This document shows, one piece after another, positions 24,929-33,757 of a stretch of 64,000 bases of DNA. Origin of the DNA: Escherichia coli. Lineage in GTDB: Bacteria; Pseudomonadota; Gammaproteobacteria; Enterobacterales; Enterobacteriaceae. The stretch lies in the NCBI RefSeq assembly GCF_003790525.1, contig NZ_CP033635.1; one strand, 5' to 3'. The notes beneath the pieces were generated by a model, which did no database searches, was not told where the DNA came from, and saw only the letters and a list, made by a program, of their open reading frames with translations. Both the position numbers and the translations under genes were made by a program. Numbering within the stretch: the stretch's first letter is position 1; every line of letters starts with the position of its first letter.

Positions 24929-26614
24929 TTATAAAACCGCGCTAATGTCACAAATATCATCGGCCAGGTTCCAGACACCGGGTTGATGTGTAACCATAAT
25001 GACGCCGCTTGTGGGGAGTTTTTCTCGCACTAAACGCAGTAAGCGGATTGCCTCTTGTTCCTCAAGATGAGAGGTAGTTTCGTCAAGAAATATCCATTTC
25101 GGACGTCGTAAAATTAATCGAGCCAGGGCGATACGTTGTTTTTCGCCGCTGGAAAGAATATCTCCCCAGCGATCGTGGTCATGAATACGCGTAGCCAATT
25201 TCCCCAGCCCAACCTGATGCAGTACTTCACTCAACGATTTATCGTCTACGGACAGGGGAAGTGCTTTACAAATAATCTCTTTCAGTAAGCCGGTTTTGAT
25301 TAACGGTGTTTGTGACACATACCAACTGTCAGCAGGAGAAGAAATATCACCTTTAAACCACGGCCAGCAGTGGGATAATGTTTTAAGCAGTGTGGTTTTT
25401 CCCGTACCAGAGTAACCTTTCAGCAATAGCCATTTGCCTGGCAAAACATGAAAGTTCAGGTTCTCTAATATGATCTTATTATCAGGAGTACGAATACTCG
25501 CGTCAGCCACTTGTACCGCATGTTGGCAATTTTTAGGCTTATTCGTAGGGCGCTGTTCGGTGAGTTGATGGAACTCAGACAAGCGATCGATAACCGCAGC
25601 CAGTACAGCAAGTTCATCATATTTATAAATAAACCAGCTTAAATTGTTCGATACCAGCATAAATGCCTGGCGCGATTTCATCAGTCCGCCCAGATTGATC
25701 TGTCCGCTAATAAACTGCGGCAATAACAGAAAGTAGGGAAGAACGCTAAGCGAGCGCGAATAAATATTCTGCCAGTAATCAAGCCACCGCTGACGATTCA
25801 TTAAACGATGCCAGTTCTCTTTAATGGTATGAAAATTTTCGCTCAACTCCTGGCGTTGTAGAGACTCAGCATTGCTTAGCGCAATCAGTTCTGCCTGCTT
25901 ATTATGCTGCACAAGATTAGTTCGAAATGTCGCTTCGCTACGTTGTTTTTCCACATTAAGCGGACGAATACGTTTACCAACCTTATGGGTAAATAAAGTT
26001 CCACCGATCACAATGAGCACGACGGTATAGACCATATACCCCTGGATATTCCATTCAGTTCCACCAACAGTGAATGAGAGCGTACCCGCGCTTTGCCAAA
26101 GAATAACGGTAAAGGTGATCAGCATGCTAAGTGACTGGATGAAGCCAAATGAAAGACTGAGCGTTTTGCTGATCAGTAAGAGAATGTCTTCAGCGATACG
26201 TTGGTCAGGGTTATCTGTATTTTTATGCTCGCCGTAGATCTGCGTGAAGTAGTAGTTTTTATCTGCAAACCAGCGATTAAGGTAGTAATCTGTTAACCAT
26301 TCGCGCCAGCGAATAGTCAGTAGTTTAATTAACCATGTTTTGTTTACGGATATTAATACAAAGATCCCCAGCAGGGCAGGGAACCAAAGGACAAGCTGCC
26401 AAAGCTTATCAGTTTCTTTCTGGCTTAGCGCATTGAAAAAATCATTATTCCAGTCGTTTAACCAGACCTGAATTTTAACCACGCCAAGGATCATGGCGAG
26501 GATAATAATGATTAACAACACTGAAGTTTTATTATTCTTACGCAGCCAAAAGGGCTTCAGCAGACAGAGATACTTTGCTATCAACATACAAAACGTAATG
26601 GGAATGGTTATCAT
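24929..26614 (-). CDS. yddA: ABC transporter (fused permease/ATPase) YddA
   Basis: 561-aa ORF; N-terminal transmembrane domain; C-terminal NBD with Walker A GYSGTGKTT, signature SSGEKQR, Walker B IFLDETTS. Confidence 0.88.
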   Translation of the reverse strand: MITIPITFCMLIAKYLCLLKPFWLRKNNKTSVLLIIIILAMILGVVKIQVWLNDWNNDFFNALSQKETDKLWQLVLWFPALLGIFVLISVNKTWLIKLLTIRWREWLTDYYLNRWFADKNYYFTQIYGEHKNTDNPDQRIAEDILLLISKTLSLSFGFIQSLSMLITFTVILWQSAGTLSFTVGGTEWNIQGYMVYTVVLIVIGGTLFTHKVGKRIRPLNVEKQRSEATFRTNLVQHNKQAELIALSNAESLQRQELSENFHTIKENWHRLMNRQRWLDYWQNIYSRSLSVLPYFLLLPQFISGQINLGGLMKSRQAFMLVSNNLSWFIYKYDELAVLAAVIDRLSEFHQLTEQRPTNKPKNCQHAVQVADASIRTPDNKIILENLNFHVLPGKWLLLKGYSGTGKTTLLKTLSHCWPWFKGDISSPADSWYVSQTPLIKTGLLKEIICKALPLSVDDKSLSEVLHQVGLGKLATRIHDHDRWGDILSSGEKQRIALARLILRRPKWIFLDETTSHLEEQEAIRLLRLVREKLPTSGVIMVTHQPGVWNLADDICDISAVL

Positions 26615-26904
26615 TAGCGAAAATTTATTGTGCCATCCAATGATTATCTATGGCAATGATATACTGATGAAATTTATTTAAGTATCATTTAACAATATGA
26701 AATATAAAGAAATATTTTATTTTCAGTGGTTATGGTTATGCTATTGATAATCAAGGGTATTGCTAATGCCCTGACGCATACCTCGTAAGCCAGGATTTTC
26801 GCAAAGGAAGATGATGAAGACGAAACACCCGACAGGAATTTATGTCGGGTGCCTTGTTAAGGTCATAAGAAGGAGGCTAAGAATGGAGCTAAGGGGGAGC
26901 GTTA

Positions 26905-28062
26905 TTAATTATTCTCCATTTGTTTTGCAACATCCATAATGTGGTAAAGCGGTACTCTGTTCTTAGCTAACTCCACCATGGCGTTCATATAAGGTACCAT
27001 GGTTGAAAAAAGGATTTTATAACCTTCGCAAAAATAGGAAACAGTCTCATTGTTTACTTTAGTAATACGATGCTTAGGGCAACCACCATTGCAGATAGGT
27101 TTATATGCACATTGCTGACATTTCGCTGAAATCCGTTTTTTTTGCGCTGTCAGTTGAACACTGTTCATCGTTTTGAGTTCAGATTTATTAATGTTTCCAA
27201 TTTTGTACTGTGGATAGACAAAATGGTCGCATTCGTAAATGTCTCCATTACTTTCAACAACCAGATTATCCTTGCAGGACGCCTGGAAAATACAACTGGT
27301 ATGCCCATTCCCCAAAAAACGGCTGACAAAGCTTTCAAACTGACGGATGAAAATTTCACCCACATCGTTTTTAACCCATTGCATAAAAATGGTTGACATA
27401 AACTTGCCATAAGCCGTAGGAGGCACAGAAAAATCAATGATACGGAATGTGTTCTCACTATGACCACTGAAATCAATATTCGGCGTCCCGGTTTCGAGCA
27501 ATTCGATAAATTGCATATGTTTACTGCCGATAGATTTTAAAAAATGATAAACCTCAAGAGGGTAATGGACATTAACGTTATTAATGACGGTTAACGTATT
27601 AAACTCTACTTGATATGATTTCAGACGCTCGATGGCTGCTATCACTTTTGCAAAAGTACCGTTACCTGAATTACTGCGTCTGTAACGGTCATGTAGCTCC
27701 TGGGGTCCATCGATCGAGATACCAACCAGAAACTCATGTTCTTTGAGAAAGGCACACCATTCATTATTCAATAAAATGCCATTCGTTTGTAATGCATTAA
27801 AAATACGTTTTTGGCCTGCATAGCGTTGTTGATAGTGAATAACTTTACGGAAAAAATCCAGGCCAGCCAGAGTGGGTTCACCGCCTTGCCAGGTAAAATA
27901 GACCTGATTGCCAGACGCTGCGATATATTGTTTGATGAACTCTTTCAGAGTGCTGTCATCCATCCATTTTTCATGAGTAAACTGCGACTCTTTTTCAAGG
28001 TAAAAACAGTAATCACATTTGAGATTACATTGAAAACTGGAGGGCTTGGCTGTAACGTGCAT
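26905..28062 (-). CDS. ydeM: Radical-SAM anaerobic sulfatase-maturating-enzyme homologue YdeM
   Basis: ORF trimmed to ATG at 28060-28062 giving [21 protein letters not shown] (CxxxCxxC radical-SAM cluster motif); C-terminal Cys-rich SPASM-like region [18 protein letters not shown]. Confidence 0.85.
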
Positions 28063-28113
28063 CGCTATCTCGCTCAATAAGGCGGCGGAAAAATCCGCCG
28101 CATGAAGGTTTAG

Positions 28114-29796
28114 TTATTTCGCTTCGCTTAGTGCTTTCTTGATATTGTTAAACTTCTCCTGATTTACCTCGCTAAGTGGTGGTTGGCTGCTGTCGATAAA
28201 CTCTCTTACCACGCCTTGCATCTCTTTAACGACCTGCGGATTGGCGGCGGCAAGGTTATCTTTTTGCTGTAGATCCGTCAGTTTGTATAGACCTAACTGA
28301 TTGTTTTCTACTGTATAGACAAGCGAATAATCGTTATTTCTTACCGTATAAGAGAATTGGCTTAAATCCTCGGTGTTGGGGTTATGCGGGTAATCGTCTG
28401 ACTGATGGCGGACAAATTTGTGGTAATTATCCCAGAATGGAATATTTTCCTCGTCAAACCAGTGAGAATAAGAGGTTATCCAGGTCAGATTTTTATGTGG
28501 CTCGCCTTGTTTCTTATCTTGCAACCACGGCAGCAAGGAAACGCCATCCAGCTTAAGGTCTTTTGGAATGCTGATATCGGCTGCATCAAGAGCTGTCGGG
28601 TAGAAATCCATTGCGGAAATCAGCTTGTCATAATTACCGGGTTGAAGTTTTCCTTTCCACCACATAAACATTGGGGTGTGAGTACCGCCAGGATAGGTCT
28701 GACTCTTATAGCCTTTTTGCGCCCCGTTCAGCGGCAGAGGACCATCGATAACCGCACCATTATCGGAGGTAAAGAGAATAATAGTATTGTCATACTGTCC
28801 GTTTTTCTTCAGTTGTTCGAGAATGCGTTTTACACCCTGATCAACAGAATAAACGGAAGCGTAGTAGTTATCTGCTGTTTGACTACCGGTATTAAATTGC
28901 TTCTGATATTGCTCCGGTGCAGGATTATCATTTGGCAGGTGCGGAGCATTATAAGCCAGGTAAAGCATAAAAGGCTGGTCAAGTGTTTTGGCACGATCAA
29001 CAACGCCAATTGCCTCATCGGTTAACTGATCGCTGATATAACCTTTTGCGGGGACGCGTTCACGGTTTTTGAACAGTGAAGGGGAGTTGTAATATGCCGT
29101 TCCTGCAGCGTGGAATCCCATAAAGTAATCAAAGCCACGGTTTTGAGGTTGCCATTCTTCCGCAGAAAATGTGGTGAAGTTGTCATGATAGTCACGCGTT
29201 TGTTTATCTTCCGGTACCGGCACATTACTGATTTTTGACAAGTGCCATTTACCTACTGCTGCAGTGTAATAACCATGATTCTGGAATAATTCAGGCAAGA
29301 AAGTTTCTGTTAGCGGAATACCATCCTGAGCATCGGTATTGGAATAGACACCAAAGCGGGCGGGCGCTCGACCGGTCATTATTGCAGCGCGGGAGGGGCC
29401 GGAAACACCGTGCGCCACATAGCCGTTAGTAAAACGCACGCCTTCATCCATTAATGAAAGGAGCGTCGGCGTTGATTTTTGCGCAGCTTCAATGGCTTTA
29501 TCTATCCCTATTTTGTAGGTATCGACAACTTCACGATTTTCCATTGTTTTTGGGTCAAAAGATCCCTTATCAAAAGGAAGTTGTCCATAACCAAGATCAT
29601 CCATGGTCAGTACGATAATATTTGGCTTTCCTTTGGTACTGTATTCAGTCGGCGTAAAGTCTGAGAAAGCAACGTTTGTTTTGGTTGCTTTCAGCTTTAC
29701 ATCATCTGCCGCATGAGCAGCAAATGCAGCCATACCAGATGCCAGTATCAAAGATATCGAGGTACTTACGACACTTTTCTTTAATGCAGACTTCAT
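28114..29796 (-). CDS. ydeN: Ser-type sulfatase YdeN (secreted)
   Basis: ORF 28114..29922 trimmed to ATG at 29794-29796 giving MKSALKKSVVSTSISLILASGMAAFAAHA (signal peptide, 560 aa); sulfatase signature with Ser at the formylglycine position: SGPSRAAIMTGR. Confidence 0.85.
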   Translation of the reverse strand: MKSALKKSVVSTSISLILASGMAAFAAHAADDVKLKATKTNVAFSDFTPTEYSTKGKPNIIVLTMDDLGYGQLPFDKGSFDPKTMENREVVDTYKIGIDKAIEAAQKSTPTLLSLMDEGVRFTNGYVAHGVSGPSRAAIMTGRAPARFGVYSNTDAQDGIPLTETFLPELFQNHGYYTAAVGKWHLSKISNVPVPEDKQTRDYHDNFTTFSAEEWQPQNRGFDYFMGFHAAGTAYYNSPSLFKNRERVPAKGYISDQLTDEAIGVVDRAKTLDQPFMLYLAYNAPHLPNDNPAPEQYQKQFNTGSQTADNYYASVYSVDQGVKRILEQLKKNGQYDNTIILFTSDNGAVIDGPLPLNGAQKGYKSQTYPGGTHTPMFMWWKGKLQPGNYDKLISAMDFYPTALDAADISIPKDLKLDGVSLLPWLQDKKQGEPHKNLTWITSYSHWFDEENIPFWDNYHKFVRHQSDDYPHNPNTEDLSQFSYTVRNNDYSLVYTVENNQLGLYKLTDLQQKDNLAAANPQVVKEMQGVVREFIDSSQPPLSEVNQEKFNNIKKALSEAK

Positions 29797-30112
29797 AAAT
29801 GTTCCTCTTCTTATTGTACTTAATTCCAAAGTAATTTTACGAAGAGAAATAAGTGGATGTAAGTGAAGTGAGTCACATAAAGAGATAGCAGATTTAGCTA
29901 AAAAAGGGAAATAACAGTCCATAAAGCGTTGACATTACTTTCTGTTCTACTAAGTAATTTCTCGCCGATAAACAACTAATCTATTGATATTTAATAAATT
30001 ATTGCATTTTAATGACAAAATGCCGAATTGAGATCATAAATAATCATGCAACAGGTTATGCAAATGCATAAATATGTGATGAATGTCACTTATTTATTTC
30101 AAGAAATATATC

Positions 30113-30148
30113 GCCTAAAAACAACGCGGGGCAGGAAATGGCTGCCCC
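30113..30148 (-). terminator. Bidirectional-looking intrinsic terminator downstream of ydeO
   Basis: Stem ggggcag / ctgcccc (30128..30148), 7-nt loop; T-rich flank on both strands (minus-strand U-tract from the complement of gcctaaaaacaacg). Confidence 0.6.
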
Positions 30149-30196
30149 ATTTAATTCTTACGTAGCGTGTGTGGTTGACTACTCGTTAGCAAATAA

Positions 30197-30958
30197 TCAA
30201 ATAGCTAAAGCACTCATCGTGTTGTCCGTGTTCATACCGGTGTGCCTTTGACAACGGTACTCCTTCGAAACTCTCTTCGGACTGTTGCCGAAATGTTTGC
30301 GGAACGCATAAATAAAATAAGATGTACTCGCATAACCACATTGTTCGGCAATTTTATTGACTGAACCTTCTACGCGTATCAAATTTTTTGCGTGCTGCAT
30401 TCTGGCATCTAAAAGAATCTGTGAGAATGTCGTTTGCTCTTGCTTTAGTTTTTTCTTCAACAGGCTTTCACTGATGTACAGGCAGTCACAAATATCTTTC
30501 AGCTTCCATGGGTGCGCCAGCTTCATGTTGACAATATTTCTCACTTTCCCGGAAACGGATAGCACACCGTTAGTTAATAGTGTAATGAAACCTTTGCATG
30601 CGGCAAAAATAGACAGGCAAGAAAAAAGCAAAAGTTCTGAAAAGTTATGATGATTGCGTTCTTCCGAGTTGAGATAAGCAATCATTTCATTAAGCAATCC
30701 CGTCGGTACATTTGAAGCACGTAAAAACTTCGCAGGAACAGGCACCGTCACTGTCTGGATGTTAGTGCATTGTAGATATTTTTTAATGGTGTTTTCATTA
30801 AATCCGATTTCTTTGAAATGCCGCTCATAAGGTTCAAAATGCGTACGAACAGCGTTATCTACCATCAGGATCTCGCCGTCAGAGAAGGCGTAATCTTTAT
30901 CTAAAATGTTAGCGTTGAAGGCATGATGAATAAATATAACAGAACAAACGAGCGACAT
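30197..30958 (-). CDS. ydeO: AraC-family acid-resistance regulator YdeO
   Basis: 253-aa ORF MSLVCSVIFIHHAFNANILDKDYAFSDGEILMVD...; C-terminal AraC-type HTH (AEQCGYASTSYFIYAFRKHFGNSPK). Confidence 0.93.
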   Translation of the reverse strand: MSLVCSVIFIHHAFNANILDKDYAFSDGEILMVDNAVRTHFEPYERHFKEIGFNENTIKKYLQCTNIQTVTVPVPAKFLRASNVPTGLLNEMIAYLNSEERNHHNFSELLLFSCLSIFAACKGFITLLTNGVLSVSGKVRNIVNMKLAHPWKLKDICDCLYISESLLKKKLKQEQTTFSQILLDARMQHAKNLIRVEGSVNKIAEQCGYASTSYFIYAFRKHFGNSPKRVSKEYRCQRHTGMNTDNTMSALAI

Positions 30959-31032
30959 TTTATCTCCTTAAAACAATAAAGTTTTTATCGATACTTTTTT
31001 AACATTTCACATTTATAATTTGCTGTTTATTT

Positions 31033-31230
31033 TCAGTCTTGCAAACTATTGATAATGAAATGTGTAAGATCTCTTGCCATGCGACCCATTTCTGAAATGC
31101 CCTGCTGATCAATTGCCGAAAAAATGGCTATCAACGTAAGTGTCAGCAACAAGACAACCACAATTACAGACATGATTTCTTTATAGTTGTCTCTTTGCAT
31201 GATTTTGTTTTTCACTGTGGTCGCATGCAT
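31033..31230 (-). CDS. safA: Small membrane connector protein SafA (EvgS-to-PhoQ)
   Basis: 65-aa ORF MHATTVKNKIMQRDNYKEIMSVIVVVLLLTLTLIAIFSAI... with a single transmembrane segment; 74 bp upstream of ydeO (safA-ydeO operon arrangement). Confidence 0.88.
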   Translation of the reverse strand: MHATTVKNKIMQRDNYKEIMSVIVVVLLLTLTLIAIFSAIDQQGISEMGRMARDLTHFIINSLQD

Positions 31231-31341
31231 TTCAAATGTGTTTATTTAGCGGATAACGTTAAAAATCGTTAATCAGTATGATTAATATAACAGGCTGGAT
31301 AAAAGAGGAAATAGGACTGGCACTTCAGTACTGAGCGGAGT

Positions 31342-31359
31342 TTCTTACAACTGTAGGCA
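31342..31359. promoter_or_regulatory. EvgA-box-like 18-bp palindrome upstream of safA-ydeO
   Basis: TTCTTACA-AC-TGTAGGCA: left half matches the recalled EvgA consensus TTCPyTACA exactly, right half TGTAGG matches the inverted half for 6 bases; 112 bp upstream of the safA ATG. Confidence 0.55.
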
Positions 31360-31477
31360 GAGGTTTATATCTTATAGTGTGTAGTTTAATTTAATCCATG
31401 TGAGCAAATTGCGCGATAATAGTCAATGAGGAATTCTTCTGCTGTGCGGATGACAGCAGAAGAAATGAGGAGGCGAA

Positions 31478-33757
31478 TTAATTTGATGGCTCTAATTCAA
31501 CAGGAATACTTTTATAGCCAGGAATGCCACTTAATGGATCGTGGTTATCAAGTGTTAGCATGTGATTCGATTCTGGAAAATAGGTCACCAGTGAGCGGTC
31601 AGCCATAGGGTAAATGACCACTTTTAATCTATCCATGCGTCGTGAGCTACGTTTACCGTCTGGCGTGAGTGCAATAAGATTAACTCTTTCGCCGTTTTTT
31701 ACACGGCAAATTTTAGCTTGTTTAGCACTCATAAAGACCACATCTCGTTGACCGAATACACCTCGATAGCGATCATCCATACCATAAATCGTCGTGTTGT
31801 ACTGATCGTGGCTGCGTACTGTCGCCATGACCAGTTTACTGTTAAACGCTGAAGAGGGATCTTCTAACAGCCCTTTGCTGGTAATGAAATTAGCCTTACC
31901 TGACGGCGTCATCCAGCGCCTTTCAGCAGCTGCGTTTATCAGGTGAAAACCACCAGGATGACGGATGCGCTGGTTATAGTCGGCAAACTCTGGCAGCACA
32001 GCTTCAATGTCATTGCGAATGCGATCATAATCTTCCACCAGATACTCCCAGGCTACCACGCTCTGGGGTAGTGCTGCCTGCGCGATTCCCGCGACCACTG
32101 CACACTCTGATTTCAGCATTACACCGGCGGGTTTTAACACACCACGCGAGGCATGAATCATCGACATTGAATCTTCAACGGTTACCGCCTGCGCACCGCT
32201 TTTTTGCATGTCAATCTCGCTACGTCCCAGAACCGGCAGAATATAGCTATGCCGTGCGGTCAGCAGATGAGAGCGGTTAAGCTTAGTGGCTACGTGTACC
32301 GCCAAATCTAATTGCGTTAACGGTACAGCGCTCGCTTCCCGATCTGGCATTGCCAGCGCAAAGTTGCCCCCCATGCAGATCAATGCTCGAGCTTGCCCCG
32401 TACATATTGCTTGCATGCTGGCAATTGCAGCATGTCCAGGTGCATGAGGTGGGGTGAAGCCATAGCGCTCACCCAGGCGATCCAGAAACTCTGCAGACGG
32501 TTTCTCGGTGATACCGACGGTTCGGTCGCCCTGTACATTAGAGTGACCTCGTAGTGGGCAGATACCCGCACCAGGCTTGCCAATGTTACCTTTCATCAAC
32601 AGCAGATTGACCAGTTGCTGTACGTTCTGGGTACCATGTTCGTGCTGAGTGATCCCCATTCCGTAACAGATAATGGTTCGTTCGGCAGCGGCATATGCAT
32701 CAGCAAGTTCGGCGATTTGTGTCTGACTTAGTCCAGATATACGTTCGATATCTTTCCACTCGGAATTGAGCACGTCACGGCGTAGCTCGTCAAAGCCGAC
32801 GGTATGCGTTTGAATAAATTCATCATCCAGCAATGAGGGCCGACCTGCGGCGCTTGCAGCATCATCGCGCTCAATTAACAGGCGCATCATTCCCTTGAGC
32901 AACGCCATATCACCACCAATGCGCACGTTGTAGTAGGCACTGGCCAACTGAGTCTCAGAGTTCGTCAGCATTTCAAACGGGTTTTGCGGTGCGGTAAATC
33001 GCTCCAGGCCACGTTCCTGTAGAGGATTGATGGCGATCATTTTCGCTCCCCGTTTCACTAAAGCGCGCAACGAAGTCAACATGCGAGGGTGGTTTGTACC
33101 AGGGTTATGCCCAATGCAAATGACTAAATCGCATTTCTCAAAGTCTTCCAGCAACACGGTCCCTTTACCTACACCGATACTCGCTGCCAAACCCACACTG
33201 GTCGGTTCATGGCACATGTTGGAGCAGTCGGGGAAGTTATTGCTCCCGTATTCACGGGCAAAAAGCTGATAAAGAAAGGCAGCTTCATTGGAAGTGCGGC
33301 CCGAAGTATAGAATTCAACCTGATTGGGATCACTATAGCTTTGAAGGCGTTCGCCAATTTCGTCGAAAGCTTGTTGCCAGCTTAATGGCTTGTAACAGTC
33401 GCTGACGGCATCATATTTCAAAGGCTGGGTGAGACGCCCCGCAGCCTCAAGCTCGTGATCTCCCCAGGTAAGTAATGATTGAACCGTATTCTCAGCAAAG
33501 AAAGAGGCATTTACCTGCTTATCCGTGACTTCCCAGGCGATTGCTTTTGCGCCGTTTTCACAAATGTCGAATGACGCACTGTGCTTAGGATCTGGCCATG
33601 CACAACCCGGACAGTCAAAGCCCTCTGGCTTATTCATGTCAAACATGGCAATAACATCCTGGCGTATATCCATCTGCTTACGTACTGCATTCGCTACGGA
33701 TTTAACAGCACCCCAACCACCGGCAGCCCCCTGGTAGGATTCAATTTTTTTCTTCAT
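31478..33757 (-). CDS. ydeP: Molybdopterin oxidoreductase (formate-dehydrogenase-like) YdeP, acid resistance
   Basis: 759-aa ORF; N-terminal Cys cluster (CPGCAWPDP ... C), molybdopterin oxidoreductase family. Confidence 0.9.

Follow-up and report, generated by a model that had tools for sequence, protein, structure and literature searches.

ydeN-ydeM of Escherichia coli, a predicted Ser-type sulfatase and anaerobic maturase pair

Does ydeN, a sulfatase gene of E. coli, form a working unit with the radical-SAM gene beside it, ydeM, and on what might the sulfatase act? We addressed these questions in a stretch of 64,000 nucleotides (the window), which matches the chromosome of E. coli SMS-3-5 at 100% identity. 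Published work already covers the pair itself and its regulation by AraC and GadX and includes a ydeM deletion study, and as a textbook annotation the locus is ordinary and changes no picture. New here are the recurrence of the cassette, the spacer hairpins of differing sequence, and substrate hints drawn from the nearest sulfatases and an outgroup locus. The importance of the pair is modest: E. coli has sulfatases with no known substrates, and host glycans bearing sulfate are an important nutrient source in the gut. Judged from the sequence comparisons described below, ydeN-ydeM very probably constitutes a two-gene operon for a periplasmic Ser-type sulfatase and a cytoplasmic enzyme dedicated to activating it.

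Gene layout and recurrence of the cassette

The two genes lie on the same strand, with ydeM directly downstream of ydeN, as the first-pass annotation had placed it, across a spacer of 51 nt (Table 1). RefSeq names the products a sulfatase-like hydrolase/transferase (ydeN) and an anaerobic sulfatase maturase (ydeM); these names, and homology, agree with the gene names and functional reading given in that annotation. Because RefSeq places the ydeM start at ATG 28062 and all orthologues keep the N-terminus MH[V/I/F]T[A/I]KP, this start was adopted and the ORF-finder start, TTG 28077, was dropped. Plus-strand ORFs within the two genes, for example 28405..29025 (206 aa) and 27142..27396, were taken as mechanical antisense ORFs because strongly conserved genes overlap them.

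Table 1. Features of the ydeN-ydeM locus, in window coordinates
Feature	Position	Strand	Description and basis
Intrinsic terminator of upstream gene ydeO	30127..30149	minus	Scan: 8-bp stem, 6 GC pairs, tail CGTTGTTTTT
Promoter-like site 5' of ydeN (candidate)	29834..29863	minus	CTTACA, 18 nt, TAAAAT; consensus scan, inference
ydeN CDS	28114..29796	minus	560 aa; Ser-type S1 formylglycine-dependent sulfatase precursor; ORF and RefSeq WP_001303114.1
Predicted Sec-type signal peptide	29710..29796	minus	Residues 1-29, MKSALKKSVVSTSISLILASGMAAFAAHA, cut after AHA; read from sequence, inference
Sulfatase signature	29368..29403	minus	SGPSRAAIMTGR, S132-G-P-S-R-A-A-I-M-T-G-R, residues 132-143; Ser132 is the predicted formylglycine residue
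GC-rich hairpin in ydeN-ydeM spacer	28082..28101	minus	GCGGCGGA-UUUU-UCCGCCGC; fold
ydeM CDS	26905..28062	minus	385 aa; radical-SAM/SPASM anaerobic sulfatase-maturing enzyme homologue, without signal peptide; RefSeq WP_012311810.1
Radical-SAM cluster motif	28006..28029	minus	C12-x3-C16-x2-C19 (C12-NLK-C16-DY-C19); invariant in 7 orthologues
SPASM region	27028..27294	minus	C257, C263, C278, C315, C318, C324, C328, C345 and Asp279; Pfam SPASM, anSMEcpe alignment
Terminator-like hairpin 3' of ydeM	26816..26854	minus	Core stem CACCCGACA / UGUCGGGUG, 8-nt loop, then UUUCGUCUUC

In other bacteria, a sulfatase gene was followed by the maturase gene in all 10 orthologous loci (Yersinia, Aeromonas, Iodobacter, Salmonella, Leminorella, Proteus, Shewanella, Dryocola, another Enterobacterales genome, and a metagenome). 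At every one of these loci, the flanks of the cassette were unrelated, and they often held mobile-element genes. It is this strict linkage across the 10 loci that supports the predicted conversion of the partner's Ser or Cys to formylglycine by YdeM.

These observations bear on the alternative of a mostly silent or redundant pair in E. coli, with YdeN matured by AslB or a third system and YdeM dispensable. A third E. coli maturation system is argued for by Benjdia et al. 2007, to judge by its title, on the evidence of mutants deleted for aslB and ydeM; so far as that title goes, YdeM is therefore not the sole E. coli route to formylglycine, and AslB could stand in for it. The systems for maturation in E. 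coli are incompletely understood (PMC8379841), some strains (H5 and H12) carry a ydeM broken by IS5 or IS2, and a tblastn search beside a plasmid-borne YdeN paralogue (77.5% identity) found no adjacent maturase. The ydeN-ydeM region is also low in GC (0.39-0.44 versus 0.48 for the whole window), as expected of silenced acquired DNA. However, ydeM turns up in in vivo expression and fitness screens, being induced in gut-adapted strains and scoring as a transposon fitness hit in mouse cystitis (PMC10878103, PMC8767336). The maturase has also stayed adjacent in every orthologous locus although the flanks have wholly turned over, all of the YdeM cluster ligands are invariant, and 98% of complete E. 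coli genomes (5323 of 5426) carry at least 80% of the region. The deletion study, moreover, reportedly dealt with Cys-type heterologous sulfatases and not with YdeN, which also counts against redundancy. We regard a silent or redundant pair as decidedly unlikely and favor a functional two-gene operon.

YdeN and its possible substrate

YdeN matched Pfam Sulfatase (PF00884) over residues 58-408 and the whole of the profile (positions 1-301 of 301), at 1.3e-70 and 238.6 bits versus a cutoff of 25. The sulfatase signature that the first-pass annotation had described, with Ser at the position converted to formylglycine, is present. It follows the pattern (C/S)-x-P-x-R then xxx-(L/M)-T-G-R at the nucleophile position of S1 sulfatases, is invariant in 8 members of the clade, where it reads SGPSRAAI[M/L]T[G/A]R, and aligns with CGPSR and SGPSR of the S1_19 sulfatase structures 9HH3 and 9HH2, respectively. 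The S1 catalytic and metal set is complete, comprising the DDxG Asp pair, GKWH Lys/His, NAPH His, SDNG Asp/Asn, and a distal Lys. Across 30 YdeN relatives (27-74% identity), D66, D67, P134, R136, H185, H286, D345, and K364 were invariant, with K183 and N346 at least 90% conserved. The AlphaFold model of YdeN has a mean pLDDT of 90.3, and its nearest solved structures in a Foldseek search were S1 sulfatases; from this model, we predict with confidence that YdeN has the S1 sulfatase fold. The N-terminus combines a Lys-rich N-region, a hydrophobic core, and an AxA site, and a reading of it for a twin-arginine motif and a lipobox Cys found neither. In the model, a solitary helix spans residues 12-29, and pLDDT is <50 across most of residues 1-49. 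Residues 1-29 are thus a predicted Sec-type signal peptide.

By both sequence and fold search, the nearest solved relatives of YdeN were carbohydrate sulfatases of S1_19 and S1_16: ZgCgsA (9HH2/9HH3), Ps iota-CgsB (6B0J), PsS1_19B (6PSM), and BT3796 (7OZA), at 3.3e-52 by phmmer and a Foldseek E of 3e-35, with a TM of about 0.8 on the target. The catalytic core is shared with these structures. However, overall identity is 26-28%, and a segment of ∼27 residues after DDxG (about residues 82-108), common to YdeN and its 28 nearest relatives, is absent from the S1_19 structures. Membership of YdeN in the SulfAtlas subfamily S1_19 (4S-carrageenan sulfatases) is unsupported, given this low identity and extra segment. 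The formylglycine position differs as well, being Cys in wild-type ZgCgsA (9HH3) and Ps iota-CgsB (6BIA) but Ser in YdeN.

Alternatively, YdeN might be another hydrolase of the alkaline phosphatase superfamily, for instance a phosphodiesterase or phosphonate monoester hydrolase, and would then use Ser132 directly or a formylglycine on phosphorus esters. The RefSeq name of YdeN is generic enough to accommodate this reading, weak matches to the Phosphodiest (PF01663) and PehA models were obtained, and no equivalog sulfatase model was passed (arylsulfatase NF010322, 124 bits versus a cutoff of 481). Against it, conservation covers both the complete (C/S)xPxR...TGR signature and the sulfatase catalytic set, the nearest solved relatives are all carbohydrate sulfatases, and ydeN is strictly linked to a gene for a formylglycine-forming enzyme. 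A non-sulfatase YdeN therefore appears highly improbable, and we continue with YdeN as a sulfatase.

What sugar might this sulfatase desulfate? No YdeN substrate has been published (PMC10878103). S1_19 and S1_16 enzymes strip 4-O-sulfate from Gal or GalNAc (PMC5066984, PMC10154612). P0122 (43% identity), the closest outgroup to YdeN, adjoins a chondroitin/dermatan 4-O-endosulfatase (2e-289 to PDB 6J66) in a Vibrio-type chondroitin sulfate locus, which also carries AgaS, KbaZ, a PTS, a KdgM-type porin, and another maturase. Our best guess is that the substrate would be a host- or diet-derived galactose-configuration sugar, sulfated on GalNAc or Gal, possibly at O4, that other gut bacteria could release from chondroitin/dermatan sulfate or mucin. 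The comparative results point to GalNAc and Gal sulfates as the first to consider. Behind this guess stand the overall identity of 26-28% to S1_19 and the locus context of the 43%-identical outgroup, and sulfatase specificity often shifts at such identity distances.

YdeM as a predicted sulfatase maturase

YdeM scored 504.3 bits against the equivalog model TIGR03942 (cutoff, 349.45), over profile positions 1-362 of 363. The first-pass annotation had noted a CxxxCxxC motif and a C-terminal Cys-rich, SPASM-like region in this protein, and both were borne out. C12, C16, and C19 align with C15, C19, and C22 of Clostridium perfringens anSMEcpe (PDB 4K36), and the C-terminal region matched Pfam SPASM at 27.8 bits (cutoff, 21.5; 3.2e-06). 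The eight SPASM Cys correspond one to one to the auxiliary-cluster residues C255, C261, C276, C317, C320, C326, C330, and C348 of anSMEcpe, D279 aligns with D277, and all of these YdeM residues are invariant in orthologues. We take the assignment of the SPASM Cys and Asp residues to individual auxiliary [4Fe-4S] clusters to be that of the anSMEcpe structure. Over residues 4-359, YdeM matched anSMEcpe (PDB 4K36-4K39) at 2.1e-63, sharing CX3CX2C, all eight auxiliary-cluster Cys, and the Asp277 position; relative to anSMEcpe, Cys103 is an extra Cys, invariant in the YdeM clade. The natural substrate of anSMEcpe is a Cys-type sulfatase, whereas the partner of YdeM is Ser-type. YdeM is accordingly best described as an anaerobic sulfatase maturase homologue that is predicted to act on YdeN.

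Klebsiella pneumoniae AtsA/AtsB, of which AtsA is the periplasmic sulfatase, resembles YdeN/YdeM in its Ser-type (S)xPxR signature, Sec export, and adjacent radical-SAM/SPASM maturase, and the AtsB family is the one defined by TIGR03942. By analogy with this established system, the two pairs would share a mechanism, in which Ser is converted to formylglycine in the cytoplasm before export. Gene order differs: atsB precedes atsA in Klebsiella, whereas in ydeN-ydeM the sulfatase comes first and a hairpin precedes the maturase. AtsA is also an arylsulfatase, whereas YdeN lies nearer the S1_19/S1_16 carbohydrate sulfatases than the arylsulfatase models. The other pair of the same genome, AslA/AslB, at a separate locus outside the window, follows the same two-gene logic of S1 sulfatase and anSME homologue. 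Recombinant human sulfatases produced in E. coli were reported to be more active with AslB (PMC11215262), and the literature we searched reported no AslB-like activity for YdeM.

Sub-threshold matches to the DynA (219.7 bits versus a cutoff of 450), DarW, DarE, YhhB, and PapB maturase models would allow YdeM to be a radical-SAM/SPASM enzyme that modifies a peptide and has some target besides YdeN (a cyclophane or thioether maturase, for instance), but we find this scarcely credible: every peptide-maturase model fell under its cutoff and the anaerobic sulfatase maturase model was the sole one passed, the cassette has no precursor-peptide gene (the orthologous spacers, of 42-222 nt, hold a hairpin alone), and across genera the sulfatase is the maturase's only constant neighbor.

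Transcription signals and proposed working of the pair

Upstream of ydeN, the gene ydeO ends in an intrinsic terminator (Table 1), and ydeN-ydeM is therefore a separate transcription unit. The promoter-like site 5' of ydeN has 9 of 12 consensus matches, a score that alone is not above chance. Its cgTAAAAT element aligns in the upstream regions of Yersinia and Salmonella, and the others show similar A-rich boxes; alignment of the orthologue upstream regions gave just one short common -10-like box and no conserved operator. This site is a candidate ydeN promoter. At the other end, the fold of 26800..26910 reached -23 kcal/mol (z = -4.5), with 0 of 200 shuffles equally stable, and the hairpin 3' of ydeM is the probable end of the operon. 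A simple terminator scan missed it, likely because G-U pairing carries the stem into the U-run.

The GC hairpin that had been placed between the genes at 28081..28100 is real, though one base from that position. Its stem has 8 perfect pairs (7 GC) and its loop 4 nt; folding of the spacer gave -18.7 kcal/mol (z = -3.1), with 1 of 200 shuffles equally stable. The tail that follows, CUUAUUGA, has 4 U in 8 positions and is terminator-like without a proper U-tract, and the terminator scan, in which at least 5 T in 8 were required, did not call the hairpin. It may be weak-terminator-like and is not a canonical rho-independent terminator. The single match in an Rfam scan of 26000..31500, isrK on this hairpin, was sub-threshold (20 bits versus 50) and was rejected as chance.

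A hairpin was also found in the spacer of all 10 orthologous loci, different in sequence each time (z from -1.4 to -5.1). Of the 11 loci tested (E. coli among them), 8 reached z ≤ -3, and the Salmonella hairpin was weak (z = -1.4); a hairpin in a 222-nt spacer was seen by fold, without a shuffle test. True U-runs followed the hairpin in Leminorella (UUUUU) and in the metagenome copy (UUUUUCUU). Because a hairpin is conserved across the loci while its sequence is not, the comparison suggests a leaky terminator that would set the sulfatase-to-maturase ratio.

Co-transcription of ydeN-ydeM and its regulation have been described (PMC3738151, PMC4918353, PMC10878103). AraC requires arabinose for binding upstream of ydeN (PMC3738151), ydeMN is highly expressed in an araC deletion strain (PMC10878103), and GadX binding lowers the ydeN transcript (PMC4918353). 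The first-pass annotation had called the physiological conditions of the pair unclear; given this published regulation by AraC with arabinose and by GadX, that statement holds only in part. A window-wide search for the AraC half-site TAGCN7TCCATA, with at most 2 mismatches, found none in the ydeN promoter region (37 in total versus 49 by chance), and the AraC link therefore comes from published ChIP data only.

Together, these elements suggest how the pair could work. Transcription would start within the 400-bp ydeO-ydeN spacer, under the published repression by AraC (with arabinose) and GadX. Pre-YdeN would be synthesized with its Sec signal peptide, and before export its unfolded S132-GPSR motif would be acted on by YdeM, for which three [4Fe-4S] clusters and S-adenosylmethionine as cofactor are predicted. 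By homology to AtsB and anSMEcpe, YdeM would convert Ser132 to C-alpha-formylglycine. YdeN would then be exported, cut after Ala29, and fold in the periplasm about its metal site (Asp66, Asp67, Asp345, and Asn346), where it would hydrolyze a sulfate ester. The intergenic hairpin would most likely serve as a leaky terminator or a 3'-end stabilizer, yielding more sulfatase than maturase message. The pair as a whole would be a self-contained cassette that moved horizontally among Proteobacteria.

A broader joint reading is tentative and, taken whole, rather doubtful. It supposes a self-sufficient mobile desulfation cassette (promoter, Ser-type sulfatase, leaky intercistronic terminator, its own maturase, and terminator) spread among gut and aquatic Proteobacteria, including on small mobilizable plasmids. 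YdeN would be specific for 4-O- (or otherwise) sulfated GalNAc or Gal that other microbes free from chondroitin/dermatan sulfate or mucin; once desulfated, the sugar would enter GalNAc catabolism in the absence of plant sugars like arabinose.

The hairpin would offer a testable control on the sulfatase-to-maturase ratio. Between the Aeromonas and Iodobacter hairpin stems, we observed one compensatory change, C-G to U-A.

Identity of the sulfatase-maturase pair

The ydeN-ydeM observation is confirmed and its interpretation supported; the pair itself was known before. The first-pass annotation had described a Ser-type sulfatase gene paired with a radical-SAM maturase gene, and every membership test possible from sequence backed this reading. 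The two genes lie on the same strand, 51 nt apart. The surrounding 3.3-kb region is 100% identical to the E. coli SMS-3-5 chromosome (NC_010498.1), and at least 80% of the query was found in 5,323 of 5,426 complete E. coli genomes, in nearly all cases with 95-99% identity. Given this near-universal presence and the RefSeq annotation, a known, annotated core gene pair had been recognized. Our additions are incremental, prompting experiments and overturning nothing: a mobile cassette architecture, a positionally conserved intercistronic hairpin, a corrected ydeM start codon, and a shift of the nearest characterized YdeN relatives from a GlcNAc-6-sulfatase to 4S-Gal/GalNAc sulfatases.

Features of the ydeN-ydeM locus (window positions)
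Feature	Position	Strand	Remarks
ydeN	28114..29796	minus	RefSeq "sulfatase-like hydrolase/transferase"
Sulfatase signature	29368..29403		S132-GPSRAAIMTGR
ydeM	26905..28062	minus	RefSeq "anaerobic sulfatase maturase"
Radical-SAM motif	28006..28029		C12-x3-C16-x2-C19
Spacer hairpin	28082..28101		perfect 8-bp GC-rich stem, GCGGCGGA-UUUU-UCCGCCGC
Terminator-like hairpin 3' of ydeM	26826..26851 (core)		then UUUCGUCUUC; z = -4.5; stronger than spacer hairpin
ydeO terminator	30127..30149		closes upstream unit
-10-like TAAAAT	29834..29839		common to several orthologous upstream regions
41-aa ORF	26814..26939	plus	convergent to ydeM; covers its last 35 nt and the terminator hairpin
ydeM-ydeN-ydeO-safA stretch	26000..32000		GC 0.38-0.44 (window, 0.48)
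pqqL-yddB-yddA			downstream neighbors
ydeO-safA-ydeP			upstream neighbors

The 560-aa YdeN carries the previously noted signature with Ser132 and a full-length Pfam Sulfatase domain (238.6 bits, 1.3e-70). In an alignment with 29 relatives (27-74% identity), selected by searching 1.84 billion representative proteins, the catalytic residues D66, D67, P134, R136, H185, H286, D345, and K364 were invariant, and K183 and N346 were at least 90% conserved. The AlphaFold model built on this alignment was confident (mean pLDDT, 90.3; pTM, 0.89), and its closest solved structures were all S1 sulfatases. The N terminus (MKSALKKSVVSTSISLILASGMAAFAAHA/A), without a twin-arginine motif or lipobox, reads as a putative Sec signal peptide; in the model, this stretch is an isolated helix leading into a disordered linker. 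YdeN passed none of the curated equivalog models for specific sulfatases, and the annotation therefore names no substrate class.

YdeM, which lacks a signal peptide, contains both the radical-SAM motif and the Cys-rich C terminus noted previously, the latter with eight more cysteines between residues 257 and 345. It passed the curated equivalog TIGR03942 (504.3 bits; cutoff, 349.45) and scored well below every cutoff of the peptide-maturase models (DynA, DarE, YhhB, PapB, and others). Residues 4-359 matched anSMEcpe of Clostridium perfringens, an anaerobic maturase of solved structure (PDB 4K36), at 2.1e-63, with all cluster ligands aligned: C12/C16/C19 with C15/C19/C22, C257/C263/C278/C328 with C255/C261/C276/C330, and C315/C318/C324/C345 with C317/C320/C326/C348. 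D279 aligned with anSMEcpe D277, and the cluster cysteines and D279 were invariant in seven orthologs. By the precedent of AtsB and anSME, YdeM-type chemistry would convert Ser132 to formylglycine. A 2007 FEBS Letters paper reportedly argues for a third E. coli maturation system from aslB and ydeM deletion mutants. With the paralogous maturase AslB, recombinant human sulfatases become more active (PMC11215262).

A TTG start for ydeM at 28077, taken from the ORF list, was rejected in favor of ATG at 28062, following RefSeq and the conserved N terminus MH[V/I/F]T[A/I]KP. The SMS-3-5 annotation lists the small ORF convergent to ydeM as "hypothetical protein", and that of O157:H7 as "protein YneP". 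An IS5 or IS2 insertion splits ydeM but leaves ydeN intact in some E. coli strains (NZ_CP042892.1 and NZ_CP189514.1).

Intercistronic hairpin and expression

A GC hairpin between the genes had been placed at 28081..28100; the hairpin is present, one base away from that position. Folding of the E. coli spacer gives -18.7 kcal/mol (z = -3.1), a value reached by 1 of 200 dinucleotide shuffles. Hairpins of differing sequence also occupy the spacer in all 10 other loci. Including E. coli, z-scores were -3.1, -3.1, -5.1, -4.2, -1.4, -3.0, -3.8, -4.1, -5.1, and -2.3; the 222-nt metagenome spacer, with a hairpin at its end, was folded without the shuffle test. The Leminorella (…UCCUCCUGCC-UUUUU) and metagenome (…CCUUGCC-UUUUUCUU) hairpins resemble genuine intrinsic terminators. 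In E. coli, the tail (CUUAUUGA) is not rich in U, and this hairpin was not called by the terminator scan. Aeromonas and Iodobacter have homologous stems that differ at two pairs, one by a compensatory change from C-G to U-A and one by a change from G-U to G-C. A hairpin is also kept directly 3' of a plasmid-borne E. coli ydeN paralog that no maturase gene follows (z = -4.7).

The simplest reading of this kept position and structure is that the stem-loop ends or stabilizes the sulfatase message. Only a fraction of transcription would then reach the maturase gene, and the abundant exported sulfatase would thereby be in excess over its iron-sulfur activator.

Previous work describes ydeN as a direct AraC target that shares a transcript with ydeM and reaches high expression when araC is deleted; in mice fed a fiber-rich diet, a gut-adapted araC mutant showed induction of ydeM (PMC10878103). 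AraC binds upstream of ydeN only in the presence of arabinose (PMC3738151), GadX binding lowers the ydeN transcript (PMC4918353), and an FlhDC SELEX table gives ydeNM as an operon (PMC9962212). In mouse cystitis with UTI89, ydeM was a transposon fitness hit (PMC8767336).

Linkage and mobility

YdeN orthologs are unusually conserved (70-84% identity) across Yersinia, Salmonella, Citrobacter, Leminorella, Proteus, Dryocola, Aeromonas, Shewanella, the betaproteobacterium Iodobacter, and gut metagenome bins named Anaerobiospirillum. The next relatives in a 50%-clustered library have at most 45% identity, and by these comparisons the orthologs form a tight, isolated clade. In all 10 orthologous loci examined, the sulfatase gene precedes the maturase gene by 42-222 nt, and the flanking genes are unrelated in each: for example, IS elements in Aeromonas, an integrase and TraI in Salmonella, an integrase and phage-like genes in locus L010, and a small Rep3/MobA plasmid in Proteus. 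The GC content of the cassette is below that of the flanks in seven of nine loci; in E. coli, it is 0.44 for ydeN, 0.39 for ydeM, and 0.48 for the window. A total of 33 plasmid records carry YdeN-type genes. Taken together, clade conservation, constant linkage within unrelated flanks, lower GC, and plasmid carriage describe what is probably a horizontally mobile, self-contained cassette of two genes.

The low GC of the whole ydeM-ydeN-ydeO-safA stretch is consistent with acquired DNA. In Proteus mirabilis (L012, 159..7844), the cassette lies on an 8.4-kb contig with Rep3, RelB/YafQ toxin-antitoxin, and MobA/MobL genes, which looks like a small mobilizable plasmid. In Dryocola clanedunensis (L014, 4341..9522), it is inserted between thiI, which it directly follows, and a DJ-1/PfpI gene, and carries no further cargo; these clean boundaries can be used to define the cassette ends. 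The plasmid-borne E. coli paralog (565 aa, 77.5% identity, Ser-type; L005, 3847..5544, and L006, 2729..4426; plasmid matches H26-H38) lies directly downstream of a porin gene and close to IS110. No maturase gene was found downstream of it by tblastn, so it would need a maturase in trans.

Nearest characterized relatives

No YdeN substrate has been published, and a link to the GlcNAc-6-sulfatase BT4656 was suggested at 33% similarity (PMC10878103). BT4656 (PDB 5G2V) matched YdeN at 3e-30, more weakly than the S1_19 carrageenan sulfatases (9HH2/9HH3, 6B0J, 6BIA, and 6PSM; 3e-52 to 1e-42) and the S1_16 enzymes 9FO1 and 7OZA (BT3796). S1_19 enzymes remove the galactose 4-sulfate of carrageenan (PMC5066984), and Bacteroides thetaiotaomicron S1_16 enzymes desulfate 4S-Gal and 4S-GalNAc (PMC10154612). 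These matches do not establish YdeN as a member of S1_19: its overall identity to these structures is 26-28%, and a segment of ~27 residues after DDxG, common to YdeN and its 28 nearest relatives, is skipped in the S1_19 alignments. Most of these 28 relatives are Cys-type, and the YdeN clade is therefore a Ser-type offshoot.

A substrate guess for YdeN built on these relatives and on the locus of the closest outgroup, P0122 (43% identity), is of low confidence. That locus (L015, 1..13348) encodes AgaS, KbaZ, mannose-family (GalNAc-type) PTS components, a DeoR regulator, a KdgM-type porin, its own anaerobic maturase, a PF10022 protein, an aldolase, a PfkB kinase, and a sulfatase almost the same as PDB 6J66, a chondroitin/dermatan sulfate 4-O-endosulfatase (2e-289). 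It is probably a Vibrio-type chondroitin/dermatan sulfate utilization locus, and its content points, for the outgroup only, to sulfated GalNAc from glycosaminoglycans.
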